NCBI GenBank assembly: GCA_016748015.1
Contig: JAAOMT010000479.1
Location: forward strand, 337,824 to 401,823
Length of the DNA: 64,000 nucleotides
DNA from: Geosiphon pyriformis uo1
Taxonomy: Eukaryota; Fungi; Glomeromycota
Direction of reading: 5' to 3'
The translations under genes and the position numbers were made by a program. The notes below the pieces were generated by a model. It ran no database searches. It saw only the letters and a program-made list of their open reading frames with translations, and had not been told where the DNA came from. Positions 1-41,829 of this stretch are shown piece by piece; the first letter of the stretch is position 1, and the number at the start of each line of letters is the position of its first letter.

Positions 1-186
1 TAGATTTGTGAGTAGTATTATCACTTACCAATTAATACAACAGCTTTAATAAACTGTTGACAGATCTGTCTAGACAGTTATTGTTACTACAAATAATATA
101 AAAAAGACCCCAGTAGAAAAAATTGATAACTTTCTCTTTACTATTAATGAAATTACTATTCTAATTAAAGTTCTTGTTATGGATGC

Positions 187-1029
187 TGTTACTTATAAAA
201 TATAGGAAGTATATTAGCACATAAATTAACCAATTAGAAGTAGCCATAGTAAATATGGAATTCCAAAATTTCTCTTAAGAAGAATTGCAAGATTTCAGAA
301 ATTTTAAGATTCTTATACAAAGAATTGCAGGATTCCAGAATTCCAGGATTTCTCTCAAAAGAAATTGCAGAATTCCAGGAATTCCAAAATACCTGGTGTG
401 AAGAATTGAAGAATTGAGGAATCTCAAATATGTATATATAGCGATAGTATTAGAAATAGAAAAAACAAACCTCCCAGTTTAAATTTGATCTAAACAATCT
501 TCTACATTACAAATAAATAATTATTTACTATTTTAATCTACTCTTCACTATCAACACTTTATGTTGATAGTAATTAATACTTAACTACACTAGAACAATA
601 GCTCTTGATCATGACTATTGACAGAATACTAACTTGTAATTGCTGTTACTTATTTCTTTATCTTCTTTATTTTTTTTTATTTCTTTTATTATTTCTTTGA
701 TTTTACTAAATTGATTAAAGATTAAACACTAAGATACAGACATTATAGGGACTGGTAAAAGACCCATGAAACAAGGGTAAAACACTCATAAATTTGAGGA
801 TAGCTTATCAGGAGAATTACCAGCCACCATGCTGAGAAAAAAATTTGATGGAATTGTAATTCTGGGAGACTACTAAAACAACTATTGAATCTCTGTCTAT
901 TATACAAAAGACTTTATAATCAAATCTTTAGATCAACAAAACTTTTAGATACCAATGCCAGAATATTAATTAAGCACCAAGTTACAGGTTTGTTATTTGA
1001 TTTGAGACCCCAAATAATTACCTGTAACA
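187..1029 (+). repeat. 5' LTR of Gypsy A
   Basis: Colinear with 18577-19418; TGTTAC/GTAACA termini; GGAATTCC/GAATTGCAG internal repeats. Confidence 0.95.
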
Positions 1030-1031
1030 TT

Positions 1032-1048
1032 TGATGCTCTCTGTGAAG
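1032..1048 (+). promoter_or_regulatory. Primer-binding site of Gypsy A (mutated TGG>TGA)
   Basis: TGATGCTCTCTGTGAAG begins 2 nt after the LTR end and resembles the complement of a tRNA 3' end (possibly elongator Met; not verified). Confidence 0.7.
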
Positions 1049-1091
1049 TATAATCTTACAGAAAACTAGCACTATTAACAATCATCTAAAA

Positions 1092-4000
1092 GTGGCAAAA
1101 TCAGAAATCATAGGAGCAAACCATTTAGGATTTACCAAATTCTTGTTTCAACAGTATAGCCAACAATTAGGATTAAACAATAACTACTTTCCAGCAGAAT
1201 CAGCCTTCAATTTTTATGTCAACAATAAAATCACAGACTGCTTAGGAAAAATGGTTAACATTGAATCTACAAGGGAAAATTTCTATACAGAATTATTTTA
1301 ACATATCAGCTTACCAAGAAACTACAGTTTTACACCAATCATCAAGGAAATCAATCAAACTATTGAAAGGTATACACAACAACAATTTCCCATTACCTAT
1401 GCAGACAAAGGCAAAGGAAGATTGCAAACACCAGCAGTAACACCAAAACAAATACAACCACTTACTTGGAAGAAAACCAGAGTTGAATCACCAACCAATC
1501 TATCATACCATTATATACCAGAAAGTGCCATTAATATCTTATCAGCAGACGCATCTACATTAAATATGACATCAACTTTTAGACAATTTCCATTTCAAAG
1601 TAAACAAAAAAGTGCAGAGTTACTAAGACCATATGGAGAATATTTTAAAGGATTTAAATTGTGATTACCAATGCCGATTACTGCCACTTCAACCAAATTT
1701 TGGAACCACAAGTCCATGGGAAGTAATAGAATCAGAAGAAGAAAAAAGTGAGAATCAGAAATTTACTTACCAAAACCCAATTCTAGAAAATCCAGAAGTC
1801 AAAACTCCAAACATTCAAACCCAGCAAACTCAACACAATCCAAACCCCAAAACAATTAATCAGCAAAACTTACCTCCAGTAATCGTTATTTATCAACCAC
1901 CAATTGAACCAATTATTGAACTAATTCAACAGCAGTCACTTCAACTACCTCAACAACCACAACAGCTGCTTTAATAGCTGTAACAACAACTTCAACAACC
2001 ACCACCACAACAAATTGTAACACCAATGGCATATGCTCCTATCACCAAACTTGAAAAATTTACCAGCAAAGAGGACAATGCCCAAGTGTGGCTAAATGAT
2101 GTGGAAAAAGCCATCACAACCAATGGATGAGATGATGCTAGAGCCATGCAAACTATCTCCTATTTTCTTCAGAATACTGCTAATTTATGGTACCAAAGCT
2201 TGGTTAACAAACCCCAAGATTTCAATGTATTCAAGCTTGCATTCCTACAATATTTCAGTAATAATAATAGCATTAACCACTTGGCAAACACTTTTACCAC
2301 CATCAAACAAGAGAAAAATGAAGCAGTCACTACTTATTTAGAATGTTTTCACAGAAATCTGTGCCAAATTCAGGCCATACAGGCTGATTATTTTACAGCA
2401 TCACAAATTCTAAATCAATTTATTAGAGGTCTGCACAATAGCATTCTTTAATGCGTATGTTTAATGCATCTGACAGATTTTCAAGCTGCCATTACAAATG
2501 CCAAAGATTTTGAAGCAGCTGAACTTGAAGCTAACCACATGCAAACTGTCAATCTAATAATAAATGGATCATTTAAATTGAATTCTAAGTTGAAACAATT
2601 TAGTGATTCCATCAACCAAAAATTAGAGGAATACTTAGCTAACAATTAGGCAATCTATTAACCTTCACAATGATAGAATAATTAATTAAATGCAAATTAT
2701 TTCCAGAATTAGTCATGTCTATCATCTTCAACCAATTAACAGTGACAGCAGAAGATGCATGTTTGCCACTACTGTAGTAAACAAAGACATTTGAGAATTG
2801 ACTGCAGGTTAAAAATAGATAACCAACAATCAGAAAATTAATATCAAAACTCTGATTGCTAGTTTCCAACTCCGAGTTATCAAACCAACTCAACACCATA
2901 TTAACCAACTTACCTGCCAATAACATAACAGCCAATATATCAACCACTCATATATCAATCCCCAGTTTATCAACCACAATCACCAATAATATATCAACCA
3001 CCACAGCCACAAATAATTTATCAGACACTTGCAGTTCAACCACCACCATTAAACCCAGCTCAAATGACATCAAAAAACCCTAGATCAAGAGTCACCCAAA
3101 ACTGGAGATCAATGATGGTTGTTTACCAACCAATTTTCAGTTTATCTAACCAGCCATCAGGATCATAACAGTGGAATTCAGAAACTGGGTATACTTAAAA
3201 CCCAAGTTTTCAGAACTATTTAAGTCTTCTGGTTACTCCAGAAGACACCTTATCCAACAACTTGGAGACAAACCAGAAATCACTTACCAACAACATACTT
3301 CCAGCCACTGTTATAGAAGATGAATCACTCACAGCTATATTTCCTTTCAAAATTGAGGACTCGACATCTACACTCTTGTTTAGTGAAGTCACACTTGAAG
3401 AAAAACCAATTACCACCATGTACACTGATGCCAAAGTCAATGGTCACTCTATTAAACTCATCTTAAACAGTGAGTCAGCAGACAGTATTATCACCAGACA
3501 ACTCATGAATCAATTAGGTTGCTAAGTTGACCATACTGTCAGTGCTAAGATTATAACAGCTGATAGAGCAATGAAAACTCCAATCAGCAAGATTAACAAT
3601 TTACCCATTAAAATCAATGGCATTATAGTACCCATCAAAGTCCTAGTGATGGAAGCAACACAGTATCAAGCACTTGTTGGCAATGACTGGCTGTCCAAAA
3701 CCAACACAACACTAGACTGGAACACACAGGAGCTTCAACTTAGCCAAAATGATCAACACACATGTGTACCAGCCATGTGTGGTCATTTCAAGACCACCAA
3801 CATGCCAATACCACTCATCAAATTAGAAGAAAAAAAAGAAAAACCTACCTGGAAAGCATACCAAGTCTCTTGGGCTGACAAAAACCACAATGAGCTACTA
3901 TTAATACTCTCTTGGGATGACAATAGAAAAGAAAAACAAAAAAAAGAACTTACCTGGAATACCAACCAAGCCTGGGAAACTGACAATGATCAAGACAAAC

Positions 4001-4233
4001 TAACAACAACTTGGAAGTGGAAAGAAGACAATCATAAAGAAAAAAAGAAAAAGAAGAAAAAAGATCCAATACCAATTACCACTCACTGTTCATATATTTA
4101 CAGTCAACTACAATTGTTTAATTATTGTTAACTGAAACTAGAGTGCATCAATTGTGGCAAGAAATTGTTATCACTGAATGCATGCTGTGACAATAATAAA
4201 GAATACCAGACAGCAACTAAGTTTTATTGCCAC
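1092..4233 (+). pseudogene. Gypsy A gag-protease-start of Cys-rich region (disrupted)
   Basis: Capsid-like MAYAPITKLEKF..NQFIRGL; protease LILNSESADS (from DSGS) and QYQALVGNDWL; many transition-generated stops. Confidence 0.85.
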
Positions 4234-5089
4234 TGTTACAGTTTAAGAATTTAGCAAAAAGAATCATAAAAATAATACAAACTATTCAATCATAATATAG
4301 TACAGTAATAATCTTAGAAAGGTAATGATTAACATAGTAGCAAACACCATCTCACGATAGTGGCAAGCACCAGTTCACAATAGCAGCTAACACCAACTAG
4401 TGATAACAGCAAACACCAGGTTGAAATATCAAAAAGAAAGTATTTTCTCGTAAAACTACAAATATGTATATATACAGTAGTTTTAATATTGGGAAATAAT
4501 CAATCAAGTAATAAAAATCATAACTTATCAAGCAACAGATCCAATTTTATCCAACACACTCCACTTTAAATCATACTTTCAAATTAAATATCCCAAGAAA
4601 TCTTTAAAAATCAAAAAGAAATGAAAAAAAATATTTAAAACGGAACTATCACAACCCAAAGTATTAAGAAACTTACTTGTATTATTTATTGAATGAAACT
4701 ATCATTCATCAACTGAATCCCTTGGAAGAATAATCCTTGATCAAGATTATTCACGTTGTTACTAATTGATAAAAGCTTTATTGTGAGAATTAGAAAAGCG
4801 CTAAAGACCATTAACATTCTGTGTTTCTAGATTAGAGAAACACATCAGACAATTGCAAGGATAGCCTCAGAGAAAACCACAGACAGTGGGTAGATTTCAG
4901 TTCAGCCTCTGAGAAGGAGTACATAAACACACACAACAATCAAGAATTAAAGAAGCAACAGTAAAAAGAAAGCCTTTAGTGTAACAGTAACATTATCACA
5001 CAAATAGAATTGAGGAACTCACGAAAGACTGATTGCAATTAAAGCGGGATATCAGCAATTAAATATAACAAGAAAACCATCCCGTAACA
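4234..5089 (+). repeat. 5' LTR of Gypsy B
   Basis: TGTTAC...GTAACA; 3' half nearly identical to 13065-13449; four ~23-bp tandem units at ~4335-4422. Confidence 0.93.
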
Positions 5090-5091
5090 TT

Positions 5092-5108
5092 TGGTGAACC
5101 CTATGAGG
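5092..5108 (+). promoter_or_regulatory. Primer-binding site of Gypsy B
   Basis: TGGTGAACCCTATGAGG, 2 nt after the LTR; TGG is complementary to tRNA CCA. Confidence 0.8.
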
Positions 5109-5171
5109 AAAGAAAATCAAAAAGGAAATAATAATTAGCAATAATTTATTGCTAAAAAGGAAAAGACAAAA

Positions 5172-6965
5172 GTGGCGACAAAAACCCCTAATCTTACTGT
5201 TCTTGAATTTTGCCGTGCTATTTACACACAAAATCAGAGTGATCTTGAATTACCAGAAGAGTGTTGTCCAGCAGAATCTGCCCTCACTTATTATATCAAC
5301 GCCAGAATAAATTATCATATAGGAAAGGAAGAAGAACCACACGACGCAAAACTTGGATTGTATAGAGAATTATCACAATACACTACAAAAGAAGTAGCAG
5401 TAATAGCCGCAACTATTGTTAAAATCCATCAAGAAATTGAGCAATACGCCAACGAAAATTTTCCAATATCCACAGGAAACACTAGGGAACACGCCAACAA
5501 AACCAAAGAAAATTTAGAAACTAATCAGGAAAGTAACCAGCAAAAACTAGGAACACTAGCTCAAACGCCAAAGAAAACTGTCATTCAATCAATAAAGAAA
5601 CAACGTATTTATTCACCAGAAGATAAATCATACCATTTTTCACCAGAAAATAAGATACAAATTCCATTAGGAGCTGCATCATCATCAACATCAACTTCAC
5701 AAACGCCAAGAACTTCTAGTTATATTGATAAAATTAAACAACGTAACTGGGGAGACATACCAATTACAGGAGGATATTCATCACTATTCCAAAACCCTCT
5801 TTTTCAGCCAAAATTTAGAACGGGGTTTGAAAACTGTAAAGAGGAGTCTGAATCAGAATCCAAAAAAGAGACCAGTGAAAAAACAATCACAAAACCAGTC
5901 ACTGGAACAAGCAGCCAGTCCAGAAACCAAGAAACTCGTGATCAAGAGGAAGAACTGGATATAAGAGAAGCCACCTTTAGAAACACTCAAGAAAATATCA
6001 TCCCACCTCCTCTTAGACCAATAAATCCACCAGTAGAAAATGGCAACGAAATGACCACACCATACATTGCAAGACTAACAGATTTCTCAGGAGAGGAAGA
6101 AGAAACGGACGTGCACACATGGCTCAGAGAAGCACAAAAAGCCATCCAGGCAAATAACTAGAACAACCAAAGAGCAATTCAAACATTACCTTTCTTCCTG
6201 AAAGGCACAGCTGACTCGTGGTATCAAAGCCTGGAAACAAAACCCATGAGCTTTGCCGAATTTAAAAATGCACTCCTGGAGTATTTTAGTGACCTAAACA
6301 TCGTAATCCAACTACAAAACAAATTCAATACTATCAAGCAAAATACTGGTGAAACTGTCACCCAATACCTTGCTCGATTCAATCGAATTCGCCGTCAGAT
6401 TGAAGTGATTGAACAAGGATACTACACTGATCCTCAGGTTTTAAATCAGTTTATTAGAGGATTAAAAAGCAGCATTTTAGGAAGAGTACGCTCTGCCCAC
6501 CCTAATTCCTTACCAGAAGCCGTTACACTCGCTAGAGCCCTTAAATCGGCTGAGAAAGAAGCTAACCATAGTCAAATGGTTAATATGGTAATGGAGGAAA
6601 ATAAGACAGAAACATTAGAGAAAAGAGTAACGTGATTAGGGGAGGAACTCTCTAAGAAAATAGAAAGTTACCTCATCCTGGATCTGAAAAAAAATACATA
6701 CCAACCACCCCAAAGACGCAGCCAGGAAGTCAGTGACAGTCGAAATAATCGCTCATCGCGCCAAGAATTCAGAACAGAAACATGCGCCTGCCATTTTTGC
6801 AAATGCATAGGACATTTGATTAGTCAATGTCGAACACGAATGATGCAAGAAGCACGCGAAAATAATTACTACGCGCCACCCCAAATGCCCAGAAACCAGT
6901 ACACGCCAATACCACGCCAATATCCCATCACGTATCAAAATCAAGGAGCTTACTAGCAACAGCCC
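5172..6965 (+). pseudogene. Gypsy B gag (N-terminal extension, capsid, CCHC knuckle) with a few premature stops, in frame with pol
   Basis: ORFs at 5172, 6246 and 6966 share one frame; LNQFIRGLK capsid motif; CHFCKCIGHLISQC knuckle at ~6790; the stops are TAG/TGA derivable from TGG/CGA/CAG. Confidence 0.88.
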
Positions 6966-9900
6966 ATGATAGCCAACCCGAATTGGCATCCTGAGGCCCA
7001 AAATCAGCCCATGTGGAACCAAAATGCGTTGGTCCAAAGGAATCCAAACCGCGCCGGAACCAATCAGCAAACCAATCCAAACTACCAAAATTATCAACAA
7101 ACTTATCTTAATATACTGAAAAACCTGATCATCGGAAACAATGACGGTAGAAACATAAACAGAACCAAAAATTCCTCCAAATTGAGCCAGACAATACCAC
7201 CAGCAGTTGCCACCAAAGATAGCAGCCTCACAGCTATTTTTCCTTTTGAATTAAAGGAAAACGAGGCTATGTTCAGTGGAGCAGCATTGGACGAAAAACG
7301 CCCAATCACTGCTATGTATACGGAAGCCACTGTAAACAATACCTCAATCAAACTTATCTTAGACAGCGGATCTGCTGGAAGCATCGTAATGCTTCAACTA
7401 GTAAACCAACTGGGTTTCAAAGTTGATCGTGCTGCAATGTCCCAAATCATAACAGCCGATGGAAGTACAAAGCTGCTTCATGGCAAAATCAACTCATTCC
7501 CTTTCGAAATTAACGGCATAGTAATACCTACAAAAGTATTAGTAATAGATGCTACACAATATCAAGCGTTAATAGGGAATGACTGGCTAACAAAAGCCAA
7601 CGCCACCCTAGACTGGACTACCCAAGAGCTTCTGATCAATTATAATGGCCACCAGGCCAAAATTCCAGCCACCTGTGGCCACTTCCAAAAACCCAGTGCC
7701 AACCAAAGACCTACCTTCGAATTTGAGGAAAATCCAGCACTACCAGCCATCAAAACCTATCAGCTCTCTTGGGCTGATGACCAAAGAACAGGACTACCAG
7801 CCGTACCAACGTGGACCAGCGAAGAAAAATCCGAATGGAACCAGGTAAGTTCACGAAGAAACCACCAGCGATGCAGACCAAAGCTAGAATGCTCAGTTTG
7901 CAAGAAGAAACTCTCGTCTATGACTGTGTGCAGCACACCGGACGAAGACCCAAGAAACCCCACCCACTACTATTGTAACCGTTGTAACAAAGAAAAATAC
8001 GGTTACCAAGAAAGACACGGAAAATGGGACGAAGAACCGTGCCTCGCTTGTGGAGAACCATTACCAAGAGGGTGCGACTGGAACGACTTACCAGGCAGAG
8101 GAGGAACGTGTGACGCAACTTGCCAATACACGATCCTCATCTGTGACTGGGTAAGAGGAGGAACGCCGTTCGAAGCAGTGTTCAACAGAGCGTTAAAAAG
8201 ACTACAGCACTACCCACACGACGAGGACAAGTTGTACAACACCGCACAAGCCAAAGTAAGAGGAGGAACCACCGAAGAAATACGACGTTGGAAAGAGTCA
8301 GCCGAAGTAGCCGACGAAGTCGCCAGCTACAACATGTTCGACCCAGTGGACGAATTCCAGGACTACTACCAACAACTATGCCCCACTCGACAAGAGCAAG
8401 AACAATATCTCGCCCAAATCAACACTTACCTCTGCGAAAACTGTCTCATCCCATGCCAAAATCAGTGCTGTGAAGAGTGTCAAGACGAAAGGGACTTAGA
8501 AAGAAAAATGGAAATTGAGAATCAGCAGTCTCAAAATCAATCAATAAATCAACAAGACTCACTTGACGGTCCCGAGTCAGAAAAATTTGTAGCCTATACC
8601 AACATAAAACAGGTGACCAACATCCAATACTTCGACAACGGGCACTTAGGAATAATACCCGAAAGAGCCCATCCAACTGACGCCGGATTCGATCTACATT
8701 ATCCGAAAGACCAATCCACAACGTTACCACCCAGGAGCATCACCAAAATCGACCTAAAAATAGCAGTTGAAATTCTGCCAGGAATAATGGTTCAAATGGC
8801 GTTGCGATCAAGCCTTGCGAAAAAAGGAATAAGCGTTCAAGGAGGAGTAATTGACTCCGGATACACTGGAAATTTGATGGTTTTGCTACAGAACAATTCA
8901 GAAAAGCTTTATACCATTGAATCTAAGGAAAAGATTGCACAAGCAATTTTCCTACCATTGGTAAAAATTGGGAAATTCATGCCAGTGGAAAATCATGAGG
9001 AATTGTCACAAACAACGAGAGGAACTTTTGGTTTCGGATCGACAGGAAAAAGAATTGAAGCGAATTTTGCTGAAACAATAAAGGAAAAAAGCAAAGTAAT
9101 TAAAAATGAGCGGTCTATCATGCTCTTACCATATGGAAAATCAGAAATAAGAATAAAAAAGACAATTAAAGAAAAAGACCTAATATTTGAGCCCTACCCA
9201 GAAACTTGTCAACAGTTTCTCATAGGACTTACTAACCTTTTTATTCCAGCTGATAAAGCTCAATGGATAAAAATTTTTATCGCAAACACCACAGAAGAAT
9301 CCGTCTACATTCCGGAAAATACCATCATTGGATACCTCGGAACGGAGCTAGAAAATGCGTCAACACCACAAGAAATTCTAAATTTCCCAGAAATCGCCCT
9401 CTACTGTGAACTCACTTCAATAAATTGGCAACAACCGGTAGAATGCTATCAATTTACGCCAGAAGAATTGGCCAAATTAAACATTGGAACAATGGATCCC
9501 GACCAACAGCGACAATTAAAAGCATTAATTTTAAAATACTCTGATATATTTTTAAGAAATAGCGAATTTAGAAGAACCAACTTGGTTCAACACCAAATCC
9601 CCACTGGAGACGCCAGACCTGAAAAACAACGCGCTTACCATGTCCCACCAATGGAGCATAATTTTATCAGAGAAGAAGTCCAAAGCATGTTGGAAAAAAG
9701 AATAATACAACCATCAATGAGCCCATGGTCCTTACCAGTTGTTTTAGTAAGGAAAAAAAACGGAAAAATTAGATTTTGCGTCAACTATCGCAAACTAAAC
9801 AGCAAAACAACCAAAGACTCATACCCAATACCGTTAATTGACGAAATCTTTGACATTTTTGGAGGAGCAAAATGGTTTTCTACACTGGACTTGACCAGTG

Positions 9901-10880
9901 GGTACTGGCAAGTGGAAATGGACCCAAAGGACAGGCATAAAACAGCATTCACAACACAAAATGGCAATTATGAGTTCAATGTAATGCCATTTGGATTAAC
10001 AAACACTCCCGCGACATTCGAAAGACTAATGGACGTAATTTACTCTGGAATCTTGTGGCAATCCATTGTTGTCTACTTGGATGATACAAATGTTTTCTCG
10101 TCAAAATTCACGGATCATCTTCAACATTTACAACAAGTTTTTGAGAGATTGAGACACATTGGACTTAAACTAAATCTAGAAAAATGTTTCTTTGGGAAAA
10201 ATGAGCTAGCATTTTTAGGACACGTAGTTGGAAAAGATGGAATAAAACCAGATCCATCAAAAATAGACAAAGTGAAAAATTTTCCAGTACCTCGAAATGT
10301 TTCAGAAGTTAGAAGCTTTTTAGGACTTGCATCTTACTACTGCCACTTTGTAGAAAACTTTTCAAACATCGCCAAACCCCTTAATTACCTACTATCTAAA
10401 AATGTGAAGTTTGAATGGACTGAAGCACAACAAAAAGCTTTTGAGTACCTTAGACAAAAGCTCATTGAATCACCAATAATGATCTATCCGAATTTCAACA
10501 AGAAATTTATTTTGGTCACAGATGCCTCTAGAACTGGACTTGGAGCCATTCTGTCACAAAAAGATGATAATAGAAGAGAACGTGTAATCGCTTATGCCAG
10601 CAGAAGTCTCAGTACGGTAGAACAAAACTACGCAGCACATAAACTTGAATGCTTAGCAGTAGTCTGGAATTGTGTTCACTTTAACACATATTTACGGTAC
10701 CAACCCTTTGAGATTACGACAGATCATAGAGGTCTGGTCTGGTTAAATAACAAGAAAGCGCTAAAAGGAAAATACGCCAGATGGTCACAAATGTTAGCAC
10801 CATATAATTATATTATCAAATACAAAGAAGGTACCAAAAATGCTAATGCCGACTGTTTGTCAAGAATGAGACACACATAA
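6966..10880 (+). CDS. pol: Gypsy B pol: aspartic protease - Cys-rich domain - dUTPase - RT - RNase H (no integrase)
   Basis: LILDSGSAGS; AHPTDAGFDL/RSSLAKKG/GVIDSGYTG/RGTFGFGSTG; LDLTSGYWQV, MPFGL, YLDD; TDASRTGLGA..NADCLSR, then stop. Confidence 0.95.
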   Translation: MIANPNWHPEAQNQPMWNQNALVQRNPNRAGTNQQTNPNYQNYQQTYLNILKNLIIGNNDGRNINRTKNSSKLSQTIPPAVATKDSSLTAIFPFELKENEAMFSGAALDEKRPITAMYTEATVNNTSIKLILDSGSAGSIVMLQLVNQLGFKVDRAAMSQIITADGSTKLLHGKINSFPFEINGIVIPTKVLVIDATQYQALIGNDWLTKANATLDWTTQELLINYNGHQAKIPATCGHFQKPSANQRPTFEFEENPALPAIKTYQLSWADDQRTGLPAVPTWTSEEKSEWNQVSSRRNHQRCRPKLECSVCKKKLSSMTVCSTPDEDPRNPTHYYCNRCNKEKYGYQERHGKWDEEPCLACGEPLPRGCDWNDLPGRGGTCDATCQYTILICDWVRGGTPFEAVFNRALKRLQHYPHDEDKLYNTAQAKVRGGTTEEIRRWKESAEVADEVASYNMFDPVDEFQDYYQQLCPTRQEQEQYLAQINTYLCENCLIPCQNQCCEECQDERDLERKMEIENQQSQNQSINQQDSLDGPESEKFVAYTNIKQVTNIQYFDNGHLGIIPERAHPTDAGFDLHYPKDQSTTLPPRSITKIDLKIAVEILPGIMVQMALRSSLAKKGISVQGGVIDSGYTGNLMVLLQNNSEKLYTIESKEKIAQAIFLPLVKIGKFMPVENHEELSQTTRGTFGFGSTGKRIEANFAETIKEKSKVIKNERSIMLLPYGKSEIRIKKTIKEKDLIFEPYPETCQQFLIGLTNLFIPADKAQWIKIFIANTTEESVYIPENTIIGYLGTELENASTPQEILNFPEIALYCELTSINWQQPVECYQFTPEELAKLNIGTMDPDQQRQLKALILKYSDIFLRNSEFRRTNLVQHQIPTGDARPEKQRAYHVPPMEHNFIREEVQSMLEKRIIQPSMSPWSLPVVLVRKKNGKIRFCVNYRKLNSKTTKDSYPIPLIDEIFDIFGGAKWFSTLDLTSGYWQVEMDPKDRHKTAFTTQNGNYEFNVMPFGLTNTPATFERLMDVIYSGILWQSIVVYLDDTNVFSSKFTDHLQHLQQVFERLRHIGLKLNLEKCFFGKNELAFLGHVVGKDGIKPDPSKIDKVKNFPVPRNVSEVRSFLGLASYYCHFVENFSNIAKPLNYLLSKNVKFEWTEAQQKAFEYLRQKLIESPIMIYPNFNKKFILVTDASRTGLGAILSQKDDNRRERVIAYASRSLSTVEQNYAAHKLECLAVVWNCVHFNTYLRYQPFEITTDHRGLVWLNNKKALKGKYARWSQMLAPYNYIIKYKEGTKNANADCLSRMRHT

Positions 10881-10987
10881 AAATCATCAACTCACCTGCC
10901 ACAACAACAATGAACAACCATCTTTACAAAAACCTCAGCCAATACTTGGAAACACTACAAATAGACGAAGAAATACCAGTAAAAGAG

Positions 10988-11006
10988 CTGTCTCTTATAC
11001 ACATCT
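10988..11006 (+). other. Tn5 mosaic end / Nextera adapter (assembly contamination)
   Basis: Exact CTGTCTCTTATACACATCT at a chimeric junction. Confidence 0.97.
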
Positions 11007-11546
11007 ATTTTATATTCACAAAATACTTGGAAATGGAGCATACAAGCTAAGACTAGATGATAAAATATTAAGAAAAGCAGCACATGGTAACCGGCTGAAA
11101 TTCTATTACAGTAAACCAGTAATAACAACAAAAACACCCAGAATTGGAACACAATTACCTTTAATTCTACCAGAACAAATTCCACGAGATTTAGAACCAA
11201 TAGTTTTAATTGAACATTATTCGAAAAGATAATTAATCTTAGATCACAGCAAAAATGATTTAACAATCATAAAAACGCATGCAAAAGATTCCAAAATAAC
11301 AGTCAAAATTAAAACAATGATACTTATTCCAGAAAACATCAACAATATAACTCAACAATTAGTTGAAAGCTTACAACAATTAAAATCCGATCTAGAAATC
11401 ACAGTTAATAGCTCCAAAATAACATACATAAAAAGAACAATAGAAAATCCAAAAACAAGAAAAGAACATAATTTCGAACCATATAATATTGCCAAATATA
11501 ACAACAAATTTATTAGCAAAGTTATTGAAAAATTAGAGATAGCATT
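11007..11546 (+). repeat. Misplaced copy of the integrase 3' end plus ORF3 start (matches ~12654-13044 and extends further)
   Basis: Near-identical to the downstream copy; bounded by the adapter and a 20-N gap. Confidence 0.9.
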
Positions 11547-12962
11547 NNNNNNNNNNNNNNNNNNNNAGTAAAAGAGCTAATTAAGCTCCAAAAATTAGCA
11601 AAACACTATTTCATCCAAAATCACATACTTTATTACCGGAATCGACAAAATCCAGATAATCTATTAAGAGTTATAACCATGGATGAAAAAAAAACTATCT
11701 TATTTAACATGCACTCAGATATTCATTCAGGCCACTTTGGAAAAACAGCAACCATCCAACGTGCAACTAGCCGTTACTATTGGCCAAAAATGAGTTCAGA
11801 CATAATCCAATACATAAAAAATTGTGACCCATGCCAACGAAGAGAAGGAGCAAAAACAATGGAATTATTAAGACCAATAAAAGTTGGACAGCCATTTAAC
11901 AGAATTGGAATTGATTTAGTTGGACCCTTACCAATAACAACAAGAAACAACCATTATATTGCAGTAACCATAGACTATTTCACCAAATGGCCAGAAGCTA
12001 GAGCTATTAAAACAGCTGATGTTATTTCCGTAGCTCAATTCGTACATGAAGACTTAATTTGCCAACATGGATGTCCACAAGAATTGCTATCAGATCAAGG
12101 CACACATTTCGTAAACAGCACCTTAAAAGAACTTAGCCAAAAATTTGGAATTAAGCGACCACTGTCATCACCATACCACCCTCAAACAAATGGATTAGTT
12201 GAAAGATTTAATTGCACATAATGCGAATCACTGGCAAAAATTAGTAATGAACATAAAAAAAAATGGGATTTGTTCATACCAGCAGTACTATTAGCATATA
12301 GAACAGTAAAACAAGATACTACACAATTCACACTGTTTGAACTAGTTTATGGAAAAAAAGCCACATTACCCATTGAACTTACTATCCCAACTTATCCAAG
12401 TGATACTATCACGGAAGCAACATTTCAGAAAACACTACTTAGAAAAACATACGAATTAATGGGAACTTTAAAAAACAAAAGAAGAAAAGCAGCACAAAAT
12501 ATTGAACAATCACAAAAACAACAAAAAGTGAGACATGATAACCAGTTACCAGATAATATAATTAGCTACAAAATTGGAGATAAAGTATTATTGCATCGTA
12601 CAAAAATGGAAAAACAGTGGAGTGGAAAATTTGATCACAAGTGGGATGGACCATTTTATATTCACGAAATACTTGGAAATGGAGCATATAAGCTAAAACT
12701 AGATGATAAAATATTAAGAAAAGCAGCACATGGTAACTGGCTGAAATTCTATTACAGTAAACCAGTAATAACAACAAAAACACCCAGAATTGGAACACAA
12801 TTACCTTTAATTCTACCAGAACAAATTCCACGAGATTTAGAACCAATAGTTTTAATTGAACATTATTCGAAAAAATAATTAATCTTAGATCACAGCAAAA
12901 ATGATTTAACAATCATAAAAACGCATGCAAAAGATTCCAAAATAACAATCAAAATTAAAACA

Positions 12963-13044
12963 ATGATACTTATTCCAGAAAACATCAACAATATAACTCA
13001 ACAATTAGTTGAAAGCTTACAACAATTAAAATCCGATCTAGAAA
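12963..13044 (+). CDS. Gypsy B ORF3 (unknown function), truncated by the N gap; longer copy at 11317-11546
   Basis: MILIPENINNITQQLVESLQQ.. resembles the ORF3 N-termini of A, C and D. Confidence 0.6.
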
Positions 13045-13064
13045 NNNNNNNNNNNNNNNNNNNN

Positions 13065-13449
13065 CAACTGAATTCCTTGGAAGAATAATCCTTGATCAAG
13101 ATTATTCATGTTGTTACTAATTGATAAAAGCTTTATTGTGAGAATTAGAAAAGCGCTAAAGACCATTAACATTCTGTGTTTCTAGATTAGAGAAACACAT
13201 CAGGCAATTGCAAGGATAGTCTCAGAGAAGACTCCAGACAGTGGGTAGATTTCAGTTCAGCCTCTGAAAAGGAGTACATAAACACACACAACAATCAAGA
13301 ATTAAAGAATAACTTACATCACAACAGTAAAAAGAAAGCCTTCAGTGTAACAGTAACATTATTACACAAATAGAATTGAGAAACTCACGAAAGACTGATT
13401 GCAATTAAAGCGGGATATCAGCAATTAAATATAACAAGAAAACCATCCA
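13065..13449 (+). repeat. 3' LTR of Gypsy B (5' part lost in the N gap; terminal 6-bp deletion)
   Basis: Matches ~4710-5089. Confidence 0.9.
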
Positions 13450-13453
13450 TCAC

Positions 13454-16400
13454 CCATGCCTTATTGAATGCTTTGGAAGACTAAAACGAGTAAGAAAATA
13501 GAATAATAAGCTATGCTTGGCTTGTGGAGAAACTTTTCTCGACAAAGAAATGTAGAATAAAATTCCTGGAAAAAATAGAACATGCGATGAATCATGTCAG
13601 TACATGATTCTCATAAGCAACTGGATAAGAAAAAAAATGTCTATAGATACTGCCTAGAGATGAACAATCAAATGCTTAGACAGTTGTCCACATGATGATG
13701 ACAAAATTTGGTGAATGGCTCTCACAAAAATTGAAGAAGTGTTACCAAAAGAAATAAGAATGATCAAAAATAACCCACAAGAATCCATAAAGCTCAACTG
13801 GAATCCAGAACCAGCCATAAATCTTTTGAACTCAGAATAATTCTATGAACACTACCAAGAGCTAGCACCCACAAGAGAAGAGCAGAAGCAATGCTTAGAA
13901 GAAATCAACACTCAATTATGTGACCACTATTTGATTCTATGTGACTTTCAATATTGCAATAAGTGTAACCTCATTTACAATCTACCAACATGCATGATCT
14001 ACATGATCTTAGAAGAGAAAAAACCAATTAGCAGCTGTACATTGGAATTGAAATCAGATTTTGATCCCAATTCAAACTTCGACAATAATGATGACAAAAA
14101 CAATAGTTCCAGCTTTGCTCAATATGACAACAAAATTAATAACAATTTAGACTCCAATTTAAACTCTGAAATATATATCGCACTTCCCAATCTTTCTAAG
14201 GAACAAGAATTCAGATAGTATAGTAACAACAATAAAGACATTATGCCAGAACATGTGCATGATACAGATGCAGAGTTTGATCTGAAATATCCAGGGAAAG
14301 ATTTCATCAAACTAGAACCCCATTTGCACACTTGCATTGATCTCAAAATAGTACTGGAAATTCCAGCAATAACAATAGTATAGTTAACATCTAAGAGTAG
14401 CTTAGCAAAAAAGGGAATCAACATTAGGAGAGAAATAATTGATGCAGAATACATAGGAAATATTATTGCTATGTTACAAAATAACTTGAAAAAGACATAT
14501 ATTATAGATTCAAACAAAAAAATAGCACAAGCAATATTCCTATCTCTGGTAAAAATAGCTCAATTAGTATTAGTGGGAAACAGAAAAAAATTAGGAATTA
14601 CAGCTAGAGGGATACAGAGATTTGGATCAACAAGTAGAATAGATATACCAGTTAATATGACAGAAAAAGAAATTGTTGACAAGGGAGAAATTATTTCCAC
14701 CCATCAATCAATTTTCATTCCACCATATAATCAGTACATGGTAATTATAGAGAGAAAAGTGAAGGATCAGGTTCAAATTTTTGAGACAGAAACAACACTT
14801 TGTAAATCAGGAGAAATTAGATTAGTCCATTTACACATACCAGCCAAGAACCATGGTCACATAAAAATTCTTATCTACAACAACACAGGAAATGTCATCA
14901 GGATACCAGAAAGAACAACCATTGGATACTTAACCACCAAAATTGAAAACCAACTGCCAGACATCATTTTAGACTTTCCACAACTTTGCAAATATGTGGA
15001 TATTACATCACAAACAATCTATGGACAAGAAAAATGTTATCTGCTCCAACCAGAACAATTGAAACAAATAAACTTGGGAAATCTAGACTCACTACAATAT
15101 ATGCAGCTTAAGATGTTACTTAACAATTTCAATGACATCTTTGCCAGCAAAAACAATTTAGCAGAACCAACATAATCTAGCACCAGATCAAGACTAGAGA
15201 TACAATGCCAATTAAACAAAGAGCATACTGGATACCACCAGCCAGCCATAAAATCATTTGTCAAGAAATCAACTGGATGCTTGACAATAGATTAATTCAA
15301 CCATCAATAAGTCCATGGTTGTTATCAGTAATACTAGTTCATAAGAAGAATGGAAAAATCTATTTTTGTGTAAATTACAGAAAACTGAATAGAGTAACCA
15401 AAAGAGATAGTTACCTAATGCCAAAGATTCAAGAACTGTTCAATGCTTTTGGAGGAAAGAAATGTTTTCAATGTTAGACTTAAACAGCGATTACTGGCAA
15501 ATAGCCATAAAACCAGAAGACAAAAAGAAAATGGCTTTTACAACTTGAGAAGGAAACTTTAAATTTGAAGTAATGCCATTTGGCTTAATAAATGCTTCAG
15601 CCACTTTTCAGTGACTTATAGAAATTGTTTATATTGGACTACTATGGAAATCAGTAATTATATACTTGGATAACACCAACATGTTCTCAAAAACATTTGA
15701 TGATCATCTGCATTATCTCCAACAAGTGTTTGAAAGACTAAGAAGAGCCGGATTAAAGCTAAATACAACCAAATGTTTCTTTGGGAAAACTGAACTCAAG
15801 TTTTTGGGACATGTTGTGAGCAAAATCAAAATCAAAATGGATCCAGACAAGATTGAGATTGTCAAAAACTTTCCAGTACCAAATAATCTCACAGAATTAA
15901 GAGCATTCTTGGGATTTGTTGGATACTACTGCCACTTTATTAAGAACTTTTCCAAAATAGCTCAACCACTACACCAACTTCAAACAAAGAACACTAAATA
16001 TGAATGGACAGAAATTCAACAAGAAGCTTTTGAGACATTAAAAAAAAAGCTTATTCAAGCTTCAGTATTAATCTATTCAGATCATAGCAAGTTATTCATA
16101 ATTACAACTGATGCATTTGGTCAAGCATTGGGAGCAGTATTATCTCAGAAAGAACTGGACAGATGAGAACATCCAGTAGCATATGCCAGTAGAAGCTTAA
16201 GTCTAGCAGAAAAAAACTATAGAACTCCAGCATTGGAACACTTAGCTATCTATTAGGCTATTATTAAATAGAAAGAATATTTGAGCCAAAAGTTTGATGT
16301 GTATACTGATTACAAAGAATTAACTTCAATTCAAAAGCAAGAATTTGAAGATGACTGCCATGCCAGATGAAAAATAGAACTTGCACCATTTAATTATACA

Positions 16401-17890
16401 GTACATTATAAAAAAGAAAAAGAAAACGGAAATGCTGATGAACTGTCACAAATAAGACAAATCTAAAAACATTTCAACCCAAAAATATAACAAAAAATGA
16501 ATATACAAAAATACTAACAGCTTTAACATTATATAAATACTCAATTGTTCAAGGAGAAATTATTTCAAAAAAAACAAAACAACATAAAACAACAATCAAA
16601 ACATTTATCAACCACCAAAATATACTTTACCAGAAAAACAGAAAAAATCCAAATCAACTAACCAGAGTAATCACAGAACCAAAAAAAAAGACAATATTAT
16701 TTAACATGCATTCAGATCCAACAGCAGAACATTTTCATAAAAAAGCAATCATAAAAAAAACCAGAAAGAGATACTATTGGCCATCAATGTATCCAGATAT
16801 TAGCCAATATGTTCAGAATTGTGATACTTGTAAGAGAAGAAAAAGAACAAAATCCAGTGAACTATTGAGACCAATCAAAGTGAGACAACCATTCGATTAT
16901 ATTGGAATTGACTTAGTTGAACCATTAACAATTACCAACAGAGACAACAGATATATTGCAGTAGCCATAGATTATTTCATAAAATAGCCAGAAGCAAAAG
17001 CCATTCAAAGAGCAAATACAGAATTCATTGCCAAATTCGTTTATCAAAACTTGATTTGTTGACACAGATGTTCAAAAAAATTGTTATTGAATCAAGGAAC
17101 TTACTTTGTGAATAGAACATTAACAAAACTGAATCAAAGATTTGGGATAAAAAGATCATTATTATTACCATATCATTCACAAACAAATGGGCTAGTTGAA
17201 AGATTCAACAAAACATTGTGTAAAGCCATTGCCAAAATCAGCCAAAAAAACCAAGATGAATGGGACTTGATTATATCATTAGTATTATTTGCTTATCAGA
17301 CAATGAAACAAGACACTATACAAGCAACACTATTCAAATTAGTATACAGTAGAATGGCAACTCTACCAGTTGAAATAGAAGTCAAAACATATCCAACAAA
17401 ACCAATAACAGAAAAGAATTTTCAAAGAACATTGTTGAGAAGAACATATGACTTAATGGAGACATTAGAAAACACACAGCAAAGAGCAGCTAATAACATC
17501 CATAGGTCACAAGAAAGACAAAAAGAAAGACATAATAACCAATTACCAGAAAAACCAGTTGAATTCAAGATTGGAGACAAAGTACTTCTATATCATACCA
17601 AAGCAGAAAAACAATGGAGTGGAAAATTTGACTCCAAATAAGACAGACCATTTCACATAGAAAAAATTCTTGGAAATAGAGCTTATAAATTAAGATTGAA
17701 CAACAAAATCTTAATCAAAGCAGCACATGGTAATTAACTGAAACAATATTACCATATATCATCATTATCTACCAGTAATATTCTACAATTAGAAGTACAA
17801 CAAATACTAGTCCAACCAGATAAAATTCCACAAGATCTAGAACCAATAATAATTATTGAACCAAACACGTCAAATTGAACAAAATAAAGA
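13454..17890 (+). pseudogene. Gypsy A pol remainder (Cys-rich, dUTPase, RT, RNase H, stop 16466) and separate integrase (ATG 16497)
   Basis: HDTDAEFDL, KKIAQAIF, RGIQRFGST; MPFGL, YLDN; TTDAF; HSDPTAEHF, GIDLVE, NGLVERFN. Confidence 0.9.
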
Positions 17891-17932
17891 ATATAAACAG
17901 ACATAGTAGACATGATAAAAGACATCAGAAAA

Positions 17933-18563
17933 ATGGAAATTACTGACAATATTCACTCACTAGCACAACAACTCTTTCAATTAATTTAACAATGGGATAT
18001 GGAAATTACCATCAACCAACAAACCATTAGATACAAAGATACCAGGAAAATACCTCAATACAAAGTACAGAAAAAAGCAGAAAATGCTGTTGACAAAATA
18101 ATTTTGAAAGTAAAATTGGCAATAGAAGAGCCAACAAGTGTTACCACATATTAAGAAGTGACTAAAGAAACTTGGATGTAGTGGATACAACAATTTTCAA
18201 AAAACTTTTGTTACTTTCACTTAGAAACAACATCTGAATATTCAAAACTTATATACAAATAAAACAAAATGATTATTCGATACAATAATACTATAACAAC
18301 TTAAGAAATTTGTGGGAAAGAACAATTTAACAACACAAGCAAAAGCCATCTATTGATTGTATGCTGGATTTCAAGACCAACCAGAAATCTTACTTAATCT
18401 GGTAATAAACAACATCATTATTAACCAGATGGAAAGAATAACAAATGCCCAATTCAAAGAGTTACAGAACAAGATAACACAAATAATTCTTAAAAAAAAA
18501 GTTCAAGAAATACTCAACAACAGAGAACTAGAATTAAGAGATCTCAATGAAACTTAATATTAA
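17933..18563 (+). pseudogene. Gypsy A ORF3 (env-position ORF, unknown function)
   Basis: MEITDNIHSLAQQLF...KAIY*LYAGF..QMERITNAQFKEL; stop codon abuts the PPT. Confidence 0.7.
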
Positions 18564-18576
18564 AAAGAAAAGATAA

Positions 18577-19418
18577 TGTTACTCATAAAATATAGGAAGT
18601 ATATTAGCACATAAATTAGCTAATTAGAAGTAGCCATAATAAATGTGAAATTCCAGAATTCTTCTCAAGAGAAATTGCAGGATTTCAGAAATTTCAGGAT
18701 TCTTGTACAAGGAATTGTAGGATTCCAGAATTCCAGAATTCCTCTCAAAGGAATTGCAGGATTCCAAGAATTCCAGAATTTTTGGTGTGAAAAATTAAGG
18801 AATTGAGAAATCTCAATTATGTATATATAGCAATAGTGTTAGAAGTAGAAAAGACAGACCTCTCAGTTTAGATTTGATCTAAGCAATCTTCCACATCACA
18901 AATAAATAATTATTTACTATCTTAATCTACTCTTTACTATCAATATAAAGTGTTGATAGTAATTAATACTTAACCACACTGGAACAATAACTCTTGATTA
19001 TGGCTATTGACGGGATACTAATTTGCAATTGCTGTTACTTATTTCTTTATTTTCTTTATTTTTTTTTATTTCTTTTATTATTTTTTTGATTTTACTAAAT
19101 TGATTAAGAATTAAGTGCTGAGATACAAACGTTATAAGAACTGGTAAAAGATCTGTAAAACAAGAGTAAAACACTTATAGATTTGAGAATAGCTTACCAG
19201 GAGAATTACCAGCCACCACACTGAAAAAGAAATTTGATAGAATTGTGATTCCGGAAGACTACTAAAACAACTATTGAATCTCTGTTTATTATACAAAGAA
19301 CTCCACAATCAAACCTTCAGATCAATAAAACCTTCAAATACCAATGCTAGAATATCAATTAAGTACCAAGTTACAGGTTTGTTATTTGATTTAAAACCCC
19401 AAATAATCACCTGTAACA
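18577..19418 (+). repeat. 3' LTR of Gypsy A
   Basis: Preceded by PPT AAAAAGAAAAGATAA; colinear with 187-1029. Confidence 0.95.
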
Positions 19419-40647: not shown

Positions 40648-41829
40648 TAAGAACATATATAAGATAAGCTAAATTTTGCGATACAAACTTTTAGAACGTG
40701 ACAAGTTGGGTATGCAGGATTGTGTAACAAATTTCTTGAATTCAAAAAACCCGGGGTTAGCTGATATCTGTGTGCACTGACACTGAAAACCTTTTTAAAG
40801 TTTGTATGGAATTCTAAATTAAGTTCTTTTCTTTTGGAGTTTGAAAATAACTTTGAGGGTACTTGTAAATGCTTGGTCCCTACAATGTTACGTGTTATGT
40901 TATAAGCAAAGAGAGAAACTAAATATTTTTGCATTTCACTGACGACCCCTTGACTGCCTTTTTCGGAAAAAATGAAATGGAGAAAAAAGCCGAATTCACA
41001 TGAAAAAGTTTAAAAATTAAAAGACCTGGCATGATAGATAAATTATCCTGCATATATATGTATGAAAATTTTTGTAGCTAGCAAACCAAAATTAAAGGCA
41101 ATTTTTTGAAAGAAAGTTAAGTGCATAAAATACAAGGCCATAATTTTGAACTGGCAAACCATGAATAAAAATCAATATTTCAAAATATTTTATTATTTTT
41201 ATTATTTTTATTTTTAAATTTGAAATCAATTATTTAAATTTGTAATTTTGAATAAATGTAAAATATAAATAATTAATTGAAATATAAATAATCAAAAAAA
41301 GTTAAATTTAATTATATTTAACAAATATCTAACTTATATAAAAAATTTATAATGATAAAAATTAAAATAAAATTTTATTTATTATATTAAAATGTAATAA
41401 ATTTTTTAAATATTTACCAAAAACAAAAATTTAATTATTTTTATTCATCTTTATAATTAATTTATTAAAATTTTGTTTATTTTAATTTAAACAAATTATA
41501 AATACTAAGTTTAATAAATTTTTTTATAAATTAATTAATAATTTAATTTATTAATTATTTATTGTAATATGATATATTAAATTTATAATATAAAAAATAA
41601 ACTATTATAAAAAATTCAAGATTTTAAACTTAAAATAATTAATAACTTGGTTAAAATTTGTGAATATTAAAATTTATGGTTATATTATTCAAAAAAATAT
41701 AAAATTAGGTCGAATGCTATATAAGCCTGGTTTAATGCTAAATTCATATATAATATTTAATTTTGAAAAGTATTATTAAGTAATTTCCCTAAATTACATG
41801 ATTCTCGCAAAAAAAAATTACTGAGCAAA

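Follow-up and report, generated by a model that had tools for sequence, protein, structure and literature searches.

The window, a 64,000-nucleotide stretch of the Geosiphon pyriformis genome, carries nested retrotransposons in various states of decay beside genes that retain CpG, and it raises the question of what has turned so much of the cytosine in these repeats into thymine. An initial annotation had proposed RIP-like hypermutation, not restricted to CpG, in an early-diverging fungus. The placement agrees with the Geosiphon names on 118 of 120 Pol relatives and 120 of 120 LINE relatives among the matches listed; the rhodanese gene by itself pointed only loosely to fungi.

Table 1. Features of the window. 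For genes, "transcribed" is based on two RNA-like sequencing runs; none among the runs listed is recorded as RNA. GC4, GC at four-fold sites; o/e, observed/expected.
Feature	Positions	Strand	Remarks
Older Ty3/Gypsy element H, host of A	19423-24500 plus 1-186	+	GC 0.23, 0 CpG
Ty3/Gypsy element A, 5' LTR	187-1029	+	87.3% identity to 18577-19418; TGT...ACA ends
A internal, 5' part (gag, protease), decayed	1030-4233	+	tblastn with B proteins; GC 0.35, 6 CpG
Young Ty3/Gypsy element B, nested in A	4234-13448	+	201 CpG kept
B 5' LTR	4234-5089	+	
B gag-pol	5145-10880	+	
B integrase ORF	about 11567-12878	+	
B 3' LTR remnant	13065-13448	+	Cut by N gap, irregular end
A internal, 3' part (dUTPase, RT, RNase H, integrase), decayed	13455-18576	+	Pfam; pol alignment
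A 3' LTR	18577-19418	+	Partner of 187-1029
Decayed LINE (RT, RNase H)	24712-31260	+	Family has same C>T signature
Ty3/Gypsy relic (RNase H, integrase)	33095-34671	+	GC 0.18, 0 CpG, TC/AC 0.62
AT desert adjoining relic	34700-37000	.	GC 0.116, 0 CpG, TC/AC 0.53
Intergenic AT desert	41200-41700	.	GC 0.072
Control: transcribed UPF0176/rhodanese gene	41830-43716	+	GC4 0.38-0.40
Control: transcribed Myb-domain gene	43968-46127	-	GC4 0.33, CpG o/e 0.77
Intergenic AT desert	46200-48000	.	GC 0.127, TC/AC 0.38, 5 CpG
Control: transcribed single-copy gene, 628 aa, 12 listed introns	48573-51558	-	RNA joints; GC4 0.33, CpG o/e 0.84
Third LTR, related to those of A (outgroup)	56066-56957	-	74% identity

Both LTRs of element A have lost cytosine

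The initial annotation had counted about 29 transitions and 2 transversions in the first ~245 columns of the A LTR alignment, and our recount gave 30 and 2. Over the whole length (840 columns), transitions rose to 101 but transversions only to 5, a surplus that departs from a 2:1 ratio (P = 7.6e-13) and also from 4:1 (P = 6.5e-6); all five transversions were A<->T exchanges, with none at a C site. The 5' LTR had lost C or G at 55 places and its 3' partner at 46, with losses on both strands. The reciprocal changes described earlier were thus borne out; they exclude editing of the cDNA before insertion and show C>T action on both strands after it. The third LTR provided the direction of change, having G or C at 52 of the 74 transition columns that were well aligned and in which it showed one of A's two bases.

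Mutations affected 32 of 101 CA, 21 of 62 CC, 35 of 108 CT, and 10 of 14 CG sites, and 88 of the 271 non-CpG cytosines were mutated. When sorted by 5' base, these non-CpG losses were 47/109 after T, 21/59 after C, 8/34 after G, and 12/69 after A (5' pyrimidine over 5' purine, P = 3e-4), the preference that had been noticed as GG, CC, and GA sites. The internal region of A showed E>K at 23 of 65 columns, D>N at 16 of 40, and altered glycine at 16 of 29, compared with ~16% loss per C in each LTR; in its 3' part, G, P, E, D, and A columns were altered by C>T or G>A. The proposed origin of the transposon stop codons from TGG, CAA, and CGA was also supported: of 10 stops in A, 9 occupy family Q, W, or R columns, and when the more distant B proteins served as reference, the share was 12/17 in A, 23/46 in H, and 11/17 in the relic.

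The same spectrum in related copies

Twenty-seven other genomic copies of the B family showed C>T at 283 of 1293 CG opportunities (21.9%) and at 561 of 9876 non-CG opportunities (5.7%), compared with T>C at 26 of 16131 (0.16%) and transversions at 16 of 51997 (0.03%). In all, 844 C>T changes stood against 26 T>C changes and 16 transversions, and C-site transversions amounted to 11 in 22441. Non-CG C>T was therefore 35 times as frequent as T>C and CG C>T ~135 times, with CG ~4-6 times faster than non-CG. The remaining dinucleotide rates were CC 7.1%, CA 6.1%, and CT 4.2%, of which CA, unlike CC and CT, is inflated by CpGs lost in B itself. A site-level count that is immune to shared descent gave CG 62/66, CC 102/170, CA 74/160, and CT 80/187, with T>C at 14/834 and transversions at 13/2722.

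Contigs of other copies indicated that B itself had lost C or G at 44 places. By context, B's own losses were counted at 23 of 166 CpG and 12 of 559 non-CpG sites; by effect, 22 were missense or nonsense and 12 synonymous. The idea of a cytosine mutator not restricted to CpG was therefore correct in that C>T is directional beyond CpG, but needs qualification in that CpG is strongly preferred in both comparisons. DNA contigs of other copies aligned on B revealed 218 C>T/G>A places and 8 transversion places, and short-read contigs and annotated proteins yielded the same B-family spectrum.

CG and non-CG losses covaried among the copies (Spearman 0.66, P = 2e-4). Non-CG loss per copy ranged continuously from 2.5 to 16.7%, in protein alignments whose identity filter would conceal dense mutation bursts, and one near-unmutated copy is still transcribed. 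Non-CG site means depended on the 5' base (T 9.2%, C 5.9%, G 3.5%, A 3.1%; P = 7e-18), and even purine-flanked cytosines showed C>T at ~20 times the T>C rate. A strand bias (7.0% minus versus 4.4% plus) was mostly lost when cytosines after T and cytosines after A were taken as separate classes, but persisted in part for those after C and G. Plant-like CHG targeting was rejected because CHG and CHH losses were alike (4.8 versus 5.9%), as was spill-over from CpG, given that non-CpG loss showed no trend by distance to CpG.

The LINE family behaved similarly. Among pure non-CpG diagnostics, P>S reached 14.4% versus 1.2% for S>P, G>D/E 10.1% versus ~0.5%, and H>Y 18.8% versus 0.17%. The C>T spectrum thus extends over three families, two of LTR elements and one of LINEs. 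The LTR pair of B (12 transitions, 8 transversions) was left out because an N gap cuts its 3' LTR. An inverted pair (56958-59013/59741-61902), considered as an LTR pair, proved to be two separate copies (295 transitions, 71 transversions) and had supporting use only.

Probable methylation-linked deamination

For the C>T change that transposon copies undergo on both strands after insertion, we modestly favor as explanation CG and non-CG methylation followed by deamination of 5mC that escapes repair. Repeats are predicted to be methylated in both contexts, CG by a DNMT1/DNMT5-type enzyme and non-CG, more weakly, by a putative DIM-2-type enzyme whose flanking preference would yield the TpC bias. 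The methylcytosines would be deaminated steadily without repair and would pass directly to T, as suggested by the near absence of C-site transversions; by analogy with Dim2 in Zymoseptoria, the process may operate during vegetative growth. Among the causes originally listed, non-CG methylation appears to fit best and a free deaminase worst.

The CpG excess in vertebrate germlines is ~10-15-fold. The 35-fold and ~135-fold excesses found here are larger, so plain passive decay seems insufficient, and their size leans to enzyme-coupled or unrepaired deamination. We see the erosion of transposons as a probable slow genome defence, linked to methylation, that the usual RIP tests would miss. We propose only tentatively that Glomeromycotina, and perhaps also Endogonales, actively mutate their repeats by means of an enzyme, a RID- or DIM-2-like protein, in the order CG > TpC > CpC > purine-C. 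Such a mutator, if real, would be a counterpart of RIP outside Dikarya, invisible to index-based screens. Were it linked to RID and to a stage before meiosis, it would preserve a fossil trace of sex in a lineage long regarded as asexual.

RIP and other sources of C>T change

RIP, which depends on RID and takes place before meiosis, typically produces bursts of clustered, strand-polarised mutations and acts more strongly on closely linked repeats. The near-exclusive C:G>T:A change of RIP was present here (844 C>T changes in the B family, 101:5 in the A LTRs), yet the term RIP-like, as originally worded, was not supported by the comparisons that follow. The B-family copies had no CpA or CpT preference (CG > CC > CA > CT), and A, B, H, and the LINE all had composite RIP indices below zero (-0.28 to -0.84). 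In the pooled B family, under an identity filter that hides dense bursts, same-strand neighbours numbered 268 (270.6 expected) and close pairs 159 (versus 180), indicating neither strand coordination nor excess clustering; among four single-copy strand-run tests, two reached nominal significance (P = 0.017 and 0.023; others 0.87 and 0.22). No linked-LTR excess was seen in the one element that could be compared, the internal region of A being mutated at least as much as its LTRs. Given the CpG preference, the negative index, and the lack of pooled clustering and strand signals or of a linkage signal, the pattern failed these tests for canonical RIP.

A true RIP of broad, TpC-leaning character, in which a RID-like enzyme with homology recognition acts over many weak rounds in a cryptic sexual or parasexual stage while methylation separately removes CpG, is unlikely. 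In its favor, all three repeat families tested show a very large C>T excess that is pure and affects both strands, RID is stated to occur in the AMF clade (PMC8298701, in the excerpt available), and weak rounds would blur clusters while leaving the two nominal strand signals. The absent CpA preference, the negative index, the null pooled tests, the heavily mutated interior of A, and the transcribed, near-unmutated B-family copy argue against it.

Deamination at methylated CpG only (DNMT1/Masc2 type) agrees with CpG being fastest but not with the 35-fold non-CpG excess; of DIM-2-linked repeat mutagenesis, which would also entail a functional DIM-2 gene and non-CG 5mC, gradual non-CG C>T in repeats is seen at the level of the mutation pattern. 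Unrepaired chemical damage in closed chromatin, whether spontaneous C>U that uracil excision removes poorly or dipyrimidine damage by UV in a fungus living at the soil surface, would explain steady unclustered accumulation and the dipyrimidine-like 5' preference. It is nevertheless improbable: changes were not restricted to dipyrimidines (ACA was hit at 6/29 and GCA at 3/13 in the A LTRs), tandem CC>TT occurred in 0 of 277 CCY codons, GG>AA in 8 of 717 (~6 expected), and tandem pairs in the A LTRs were 1 same-copy versus 4 different-copy.

Editing of the AID/APOBEC kind is marked by strand-coordinated clusters, a strict TpC or CpC motif, and a bias to minus-strand cDNA. A TpC-preferring deaminase of this kind acting on silenced or replicating transposon DNA would suit the 5' T preference, but this bias is only ~3-fold, both strands are hit, purine-flanked cytosines also change, and strand-coordinated clusters are absent. 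Uracil processing yields C>G, whereas C-site transversions are nearly lacking here, and the reciprocal LTR changes exclude pre-insertion editing; we regard a deaminase as quite improbable.

Introns and four-fold sites beside the repeats

The reported confinement to repeats beside CpG-retaining genes was supported by composition. Fourteen introns had GC 0.278 and CpG o/e 0.85, and 656 four-fold sites had GC 0.346 with CpG-forming codons retained. The equilibrium GC predicted from the transposon spectrum is ~3%; since intron and four-fold GC lie far above this value and CpG is kept, we infer that the C>T process is restricted to repeats. The TC/AC ratio, which polypyrimidine tracts partly confound, was 1.72 in introns versus 0.38-0.62 in the relic and deserts. 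The two RNA-like runs covering 37-51.6 kb yielded too little for a gene-level SNP spectrum: just 2 substitutions plus 3 small deletions, all from low-depth contigs of a single run. A genome-wide C>T bias masked in genes by selection could account for intergenic stretches of 7-13% GC without shown repeat origin, but the intron and four-fold values make it very unlikely.

Nesting and decay

A 4-bp target duplication (ATGC) borders element A on both sides. The pol alignment of A stops at residue 341 and resumes at 343 beyond B, and H pol residues 142-203 lie at 14-199, the alignment continuing at 19355-19951. GC declines from B (0.37) through A (0.31-0.35) and H to the relic, and stops per 100 codons are 1.07 in A, 3.34 in H, and 3.87 in the relic. 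The suggestion that decay follows nesting age holds for B within A within H, as the pol continuity indicates, but not for the 33-kb relic, which lies outside H and whose age rank rests on decay, a circular argument. The suggestion that decay ends in AT deserts holds where the 34.7-37 kb desert adjoins the relic, of which it is likely the end stage, but the deserts at 41.2-41.7 and 46.2-48 kb are without demonstrated homology, having only short low-complexity matches.

AT-rich metagenome Gypsy pairs (18 chosen pairs) also reached transition/transversion ratios of ~4-26, and we therefore rejected that ratio alone as proof. An artefact, whether from selection acting on live elements, errors of reverse transcriptase, or mis-assembly (B spans two 20-N gaps with a 392-bp duplicate), is hardly credible, because the metagenome controls were mostly synonymous and undirected (C>T 14 versus T>C 10, and 7 versus 8; directional comparison in 8 groups), B's own losses are mostly missense or nonsense, A retains its target duplication and continuous flanking pol, and short-read contigs and annotated proteins agree.

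Comparison with other fungi

The Geosiphon pattern resembles Neurospora crassa RIP (RID/DIM-2) in its near-exclusive C:G>T:A change, hit repeats, apparently spared genes, and AT-rich relics; it differs in that CpG is fastest, 5' T is favored, CpA is not, the index is negative, and no clustering or linked-repeat excess was detected. A k-mer screen reported RIP as confined to ascomycetes (PMC12543289, excerpt). Dim2-dependent mitotic mutation in Zymoseptoria tritici is likewise C>T in repeats; in the available part of that report, it is methyltransferase-linked, >95% C>T, targets methylated repeats, and needs no meiosis, but CA takes >98% of the changes and CG escapes, whereas in Geosiphon CG is fastest and CA, CC, and CT are all hit (PMC8016269). 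DIM-2 is described as preferring CpT in methylation (PMC13297926) and CpA in mutation (PMC8016269, excerpt); the 5' T preference seen here counts against a DIM-2-type reading.

Hypermutated transposons of Basidiomycota and Tuber, which are methylated, share CpG-first erosion, and Pucciniomycotina share the 5' T preference; according to the accessible sections of these papers (PMC3318451, PMC4352252, PMC4165359), the excess there is at CpG or TpCpG, whereas in Geosiphon 561 of 844 changes (~two thirds) are non-CpG and 5' T acts on non-CpG sites. Phycomyces blakesleeanus, of the same phylum, has CG and CHH methylation of transposons with DIM2 and DNMT1; its genomic levels (3.4% CG, 0.9% CHH) give a ~4-fold ratio near that of the Geosiphon mutation rates, and the available text describes methylation only, not mutational erosion (PMC11258239). 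An index-based signal in Entomophthorales is also a RIP-like claim outside Dikarya; in the part available, it is based on CpA/TpA indices, negative in Geosiphon, and includes no alignment-based spectrum (PMC10515909).

For Rhizophagus, excerpts report 32.5-49.5% of cytosines methylated by LC-MS, along with DNMT1, DNMT2, DNMT5, and DIM-2, as well as RID, in the AMF clade (PMC8298701), and mCG sites as 13.8% of cytosines (PMC8647823); we take the difference to imply non-CG 5mC, the AMF methylome sequencing, in the same partial text, having scored CpG only. The methylation reading accordingly predicts non-CG methylation in a glomeromycete. Our literature coverage, to which the Geosiphon genome paper is external, yielded no published account of this pattern in Glomeromycotina, and the accessible portions of PMC12344493, PMC13443276, and bioRxiv 2025.06.16.659975 contain nothing on it. 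RIP signatures are stated to be undetected in AMF and Mucoromycotina (PMC8647823, excerpt, citing Venice 2020). An irreversible, repeat-focused C>T process at 35-135 times T>C is scored negative by a CpA-based index, so "no RIP in AMF" may partly reflect the test used. LTRs make up 41% of the Geosiphon genome (PMC11952901), and as long as C sites are retained, the ages of Geosiphon LTRs and its Kimura landscapes probably come out much too high.

Directional Cytosine Loss in the Element A LTRs

The two long terminal repeats (LTRs) of the Ty3/Gypsy element A differed by 101 transitions and 5 transversions over 840 columns (P = 7.6e-13 against a 2:1 ratio and 6.5e-6 against 4:1), and every transversion was A<->T. 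The initial annotation had counted about 29 transitions and 2 transversions in the first ∼245 bp, closely matched by our 30 and 2 in 245 columns. LTRs of one element are identical at insertion, so these changes arose in the chromosome. A related third LTR carried G/C at 52 of 74 informative columns, indicating that most changes are C/G losses; the two copies lost 55 and 46, on both strands. The proposal that cytosine change extends beyond CpG held, as 88 of 271 non-CpG sites were changed (∼16% per copy); by context, the values were CA 32/101, CC 21/62, CT 35/108, and CG 10/14. Likewise, 9 of the 10 stops of A in family-aligned columns replaced Q, W, or R codons, as had been supposed.

Three Ty3/Gypsy elements are nested in the window (B within A within H): the pol alignment of A stops at residue 341 and picks up at 343, and the pol of H runs on across A. 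Decay rises with depth, GC being 0.37, 0.31-0.35, and 0.23 and CpG counts 201, 22, and 0 in B, A, and H, respectively. The proposed rank of a Gypsy relic (GC 0.18) in this order is circular because the relic lies outside the nest.

Among control pairs of related Gypsy elements from metagenomes (79 loci), transition/transversion ratios were mostly ∼2-3 and reached ∼4-26 in AT-rich ones, so a high ratio alone is not diagnostic. Polarization was possible in two AT-rich groups, and there change was mostly synonymous and balanced (14 C>T versus 10 T>C, and 7 versus 8). Direction and missense content are the diagnostic features, and both distinguish Geosiphon. One metagenome element (L006, 6611 bp; GC 0.29, CpG o/e 0.06, a single pol stop) is CpG-free yet nearly intact. 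Stop-bearing, unpolarized pairs (L060, L064, L041, and L055) with high non-CpG transitions (217/565, 66/332) possibly reflect the same process in other hosts.

Mutation of Related Copies

Among the 120 best listed of 171 matches to the Pol of B, a young copy, 118 were named Geosiphon pyriformis proteins (identity ≤91%); all 120 listed of 414 LINE matches were from this species, and on these grounds the window most likely belongs to G. pyriformis (Glomeromycotina). Short-read contigs of other B-family copies (4200, from a run that is perhaps the window's own sample), aligned on 6900-8400, differed from B at 101 C>T, 117 G>A, 44 A>G/T>C, and 8 transversion places. We read the 44 as losses of C/G by B itself. 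At the 35 of these listed, C/G made up 42-100% of depth, and the contexts (CG 23/166, CA 2/198, CC 3/183, CT 7/178) indicate that, in a young copy, CpG loss runs at ∼6 times the rate of other cytosines; listed losses within the pol ORF altered the residue at 22 of 34 places. A spliced contig over 6955-8326, present in two RNA-like runs, skips 7552-7714 and 7970-8091 (GT..AG, minus strand) and has C/G on its side in 32 of 33 transitions relative to B; it represents spliced antisense RNA from a family copy that has hardly mutated.

When the 118 proteins were aligned to the codons of B, counting only missense changes with a single-base explanation, rates were 20.7% at CG, 7.9% at CC, 6.9% at CA, and 5.0% at CT, with 0.47% for T>C and 0.09-0.31% for transversion classes. 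The 27 proteins in which well-conserved windows spanned 100 or more codons gave CG 283/1293, non-CG 561/9876, T>C 26/16131, and transversions 16/51997. The contrast was kept at the level of sites (CC 102/170, CT 80/187, T>C 14/834, transversions 13/2722) and 171 of 302 changed sites were singletons, so shared descent is no explanation. In 120 LINE copies, exchanges explained only by non-CpG C>T were strongly one-way (P>S 14.4% versus 1.2% in reverse); G>D/E stood at 10.1% versus ∼0.5%, H>Y at 18.8% versus 0.17%, and C>Y at 7.9% versus 0%. Subfamily structure or mis-set majorities probably explain the larger values of some reverse and transversion classes (I>V 12.4%, N>D 5.7%, Q>H 5.0%).

Non-CpG changes favored a 5′ pyrimidine in B-family site means (T 9.2%, C 5.9%, G 3.5%, A 3.1%; P = 7e-18); the A LTR values were T 47/109, C 21/59, G 8/34, and A 12/69. 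CHG and CHH did not differ in the B family, distance to CpG was without effect on non-CpG change, and CG and non-CG losses covaried between copies over a continuous range.

Mechanism

We conclude that the pattern is real and strong, a variant of cytosine mutagenesis that is probably repeat-directed. The best fit, which we favor somewhat, is that repeats would be methylated at CG and more weakly at non-CG, the methylcytosine being steadily converted to T. Such methylation would account for the CG excess over non-CG, their covariation, the near absence of C-site transversions, and the unclustered build-up. C>T was 35 times as frequent as T>C at non-CG sites and about 135 times at CG. The vertebrate CpG excess is smaller, which makes it likely that the conversion is coupled to an enzyme or that T:G repair is missing. 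Excerpts of published work describe CG and CHH methylation of Phycomyces transposons, with DIM2 and DNMT1 (PMC11258239), and mitotic C>T caused by Dim2 in Zymoseptoria repeats (PMC8016269). For Rhizophagus, such excerpts give 32.5-49.5% total 5mC (PMC8298701) and a 13.8% mCG share (PMC8647823), from which we infer non-CG 5mC, the isolates and methods being different.

Broad-context RIP, alike in outcome, is unlikely, and we do not file the pattern as RIP because hallmarks of RIP that were tested are lacking. Pooled tests gave no strand coordination (268 same-strand neighbors versus 270.6 expected), clustering (159 close pairs versus 180), or CC>TT tandem excess, under an identity filter on protein alignments that would drop dense bursts; two of four single-copy DNA tests of strand runs gave P = 0.017 and 0.023. 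The unlinked interior of A was changed at least as strongly as its linked LTRs, and A, B, H, and the LINE all scored below zero on the composite RIP index, with weakly positive values confined to the two AT deserts scored. One source restricts RIP to ascomycetes (PMC12543289), another, citing Venice 2020, notes that its signatures went undetected in Mucoromycotina as well as in Gigaspora (PMC8647823), a third makes an index-based claim for Entomophthorales (PMC10515909), and CpG/TpCpG erosion is described in basidiomycetes and Tuber (PMC3318451, PMC4352252, PMC4165359). A full-text literature search, with the Geosiphon genome papers and supplements outside its scope, returned no report of the pattern for Geosiphon or other Glomeromycotina. 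Unrepaired damage is improbable as the source of the changes, and a deaminase slightly more so.

A bias of the whole genome is very improbable. The transposon spectrum predicts an equilibrium GC of ∼3%; RNA-defined introns (n = 14) have GC 0.278 and CpG o/e 0.85, four-fold sites (n = 656) GC 0.346, and, judged by composition, a genome-wide process taking neighbors to 12-18% GC and zero CpG would be expected to spare no introns. TC/AC was 1.05 in B, 1.04 in A, 0.92 in H, 0.62 in the relic, and 0.53 and 0.38 in deserts, with 1.2-1.6 in gene regions and 1.72 in introns (raised by polypyrimidine tracts); a TpC-biased mutator predicts a falling ratio, which fits the drop from B and A to the deserts. 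As to decay ending in AT deserts, 34.7-37 kb is plausibly the end stage of the relic, and a repeat origin at 41 and 46-48 kb is unproven. An artefact is scarcely credible.

Element Structure

Positions of the repeats in the window
Feature	Position	Content	Basis	Target duplication
Element B	4234-13448	gag, protease, dUTPase, RT, RNase H, integrase	Pfam	
Element A	187-19418			ATGC
LINE	24.7-31.3 kb			
Gypsy relic	33.1-34.7 kb			

Beyond the relic lie AT deserts and transcribed host genes. In B, a pol stop follows RNase H (10878-10880) and integrase occupies a separate ORF (11567-12878). The integrase end has a 392-bp duplicate (98.5%; 11007-11398 and 12653-13044) beside N gaps (11547-11566 and 13045-13064); B is perhaps a scaffold that joins two copies. 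A Tc1/mariner element at 51576-52729, adjoining a gene, has terminal inverted repeats and a transposase with a frameshift or deletion; its CpG o/e of 0.88 suggests that it is young or unmethylated. Four degenerate repeats (114-135 bp) at 52984-53448 lie where CpG is depleted and remnants of ORFs persist on the minus strand. Tandem arrays of a 10-bp unit (58097-58245 and 60581-60814) occur in the 3′ region of each of two Gypsy copies that belong to one family and are inverted relative to each other.
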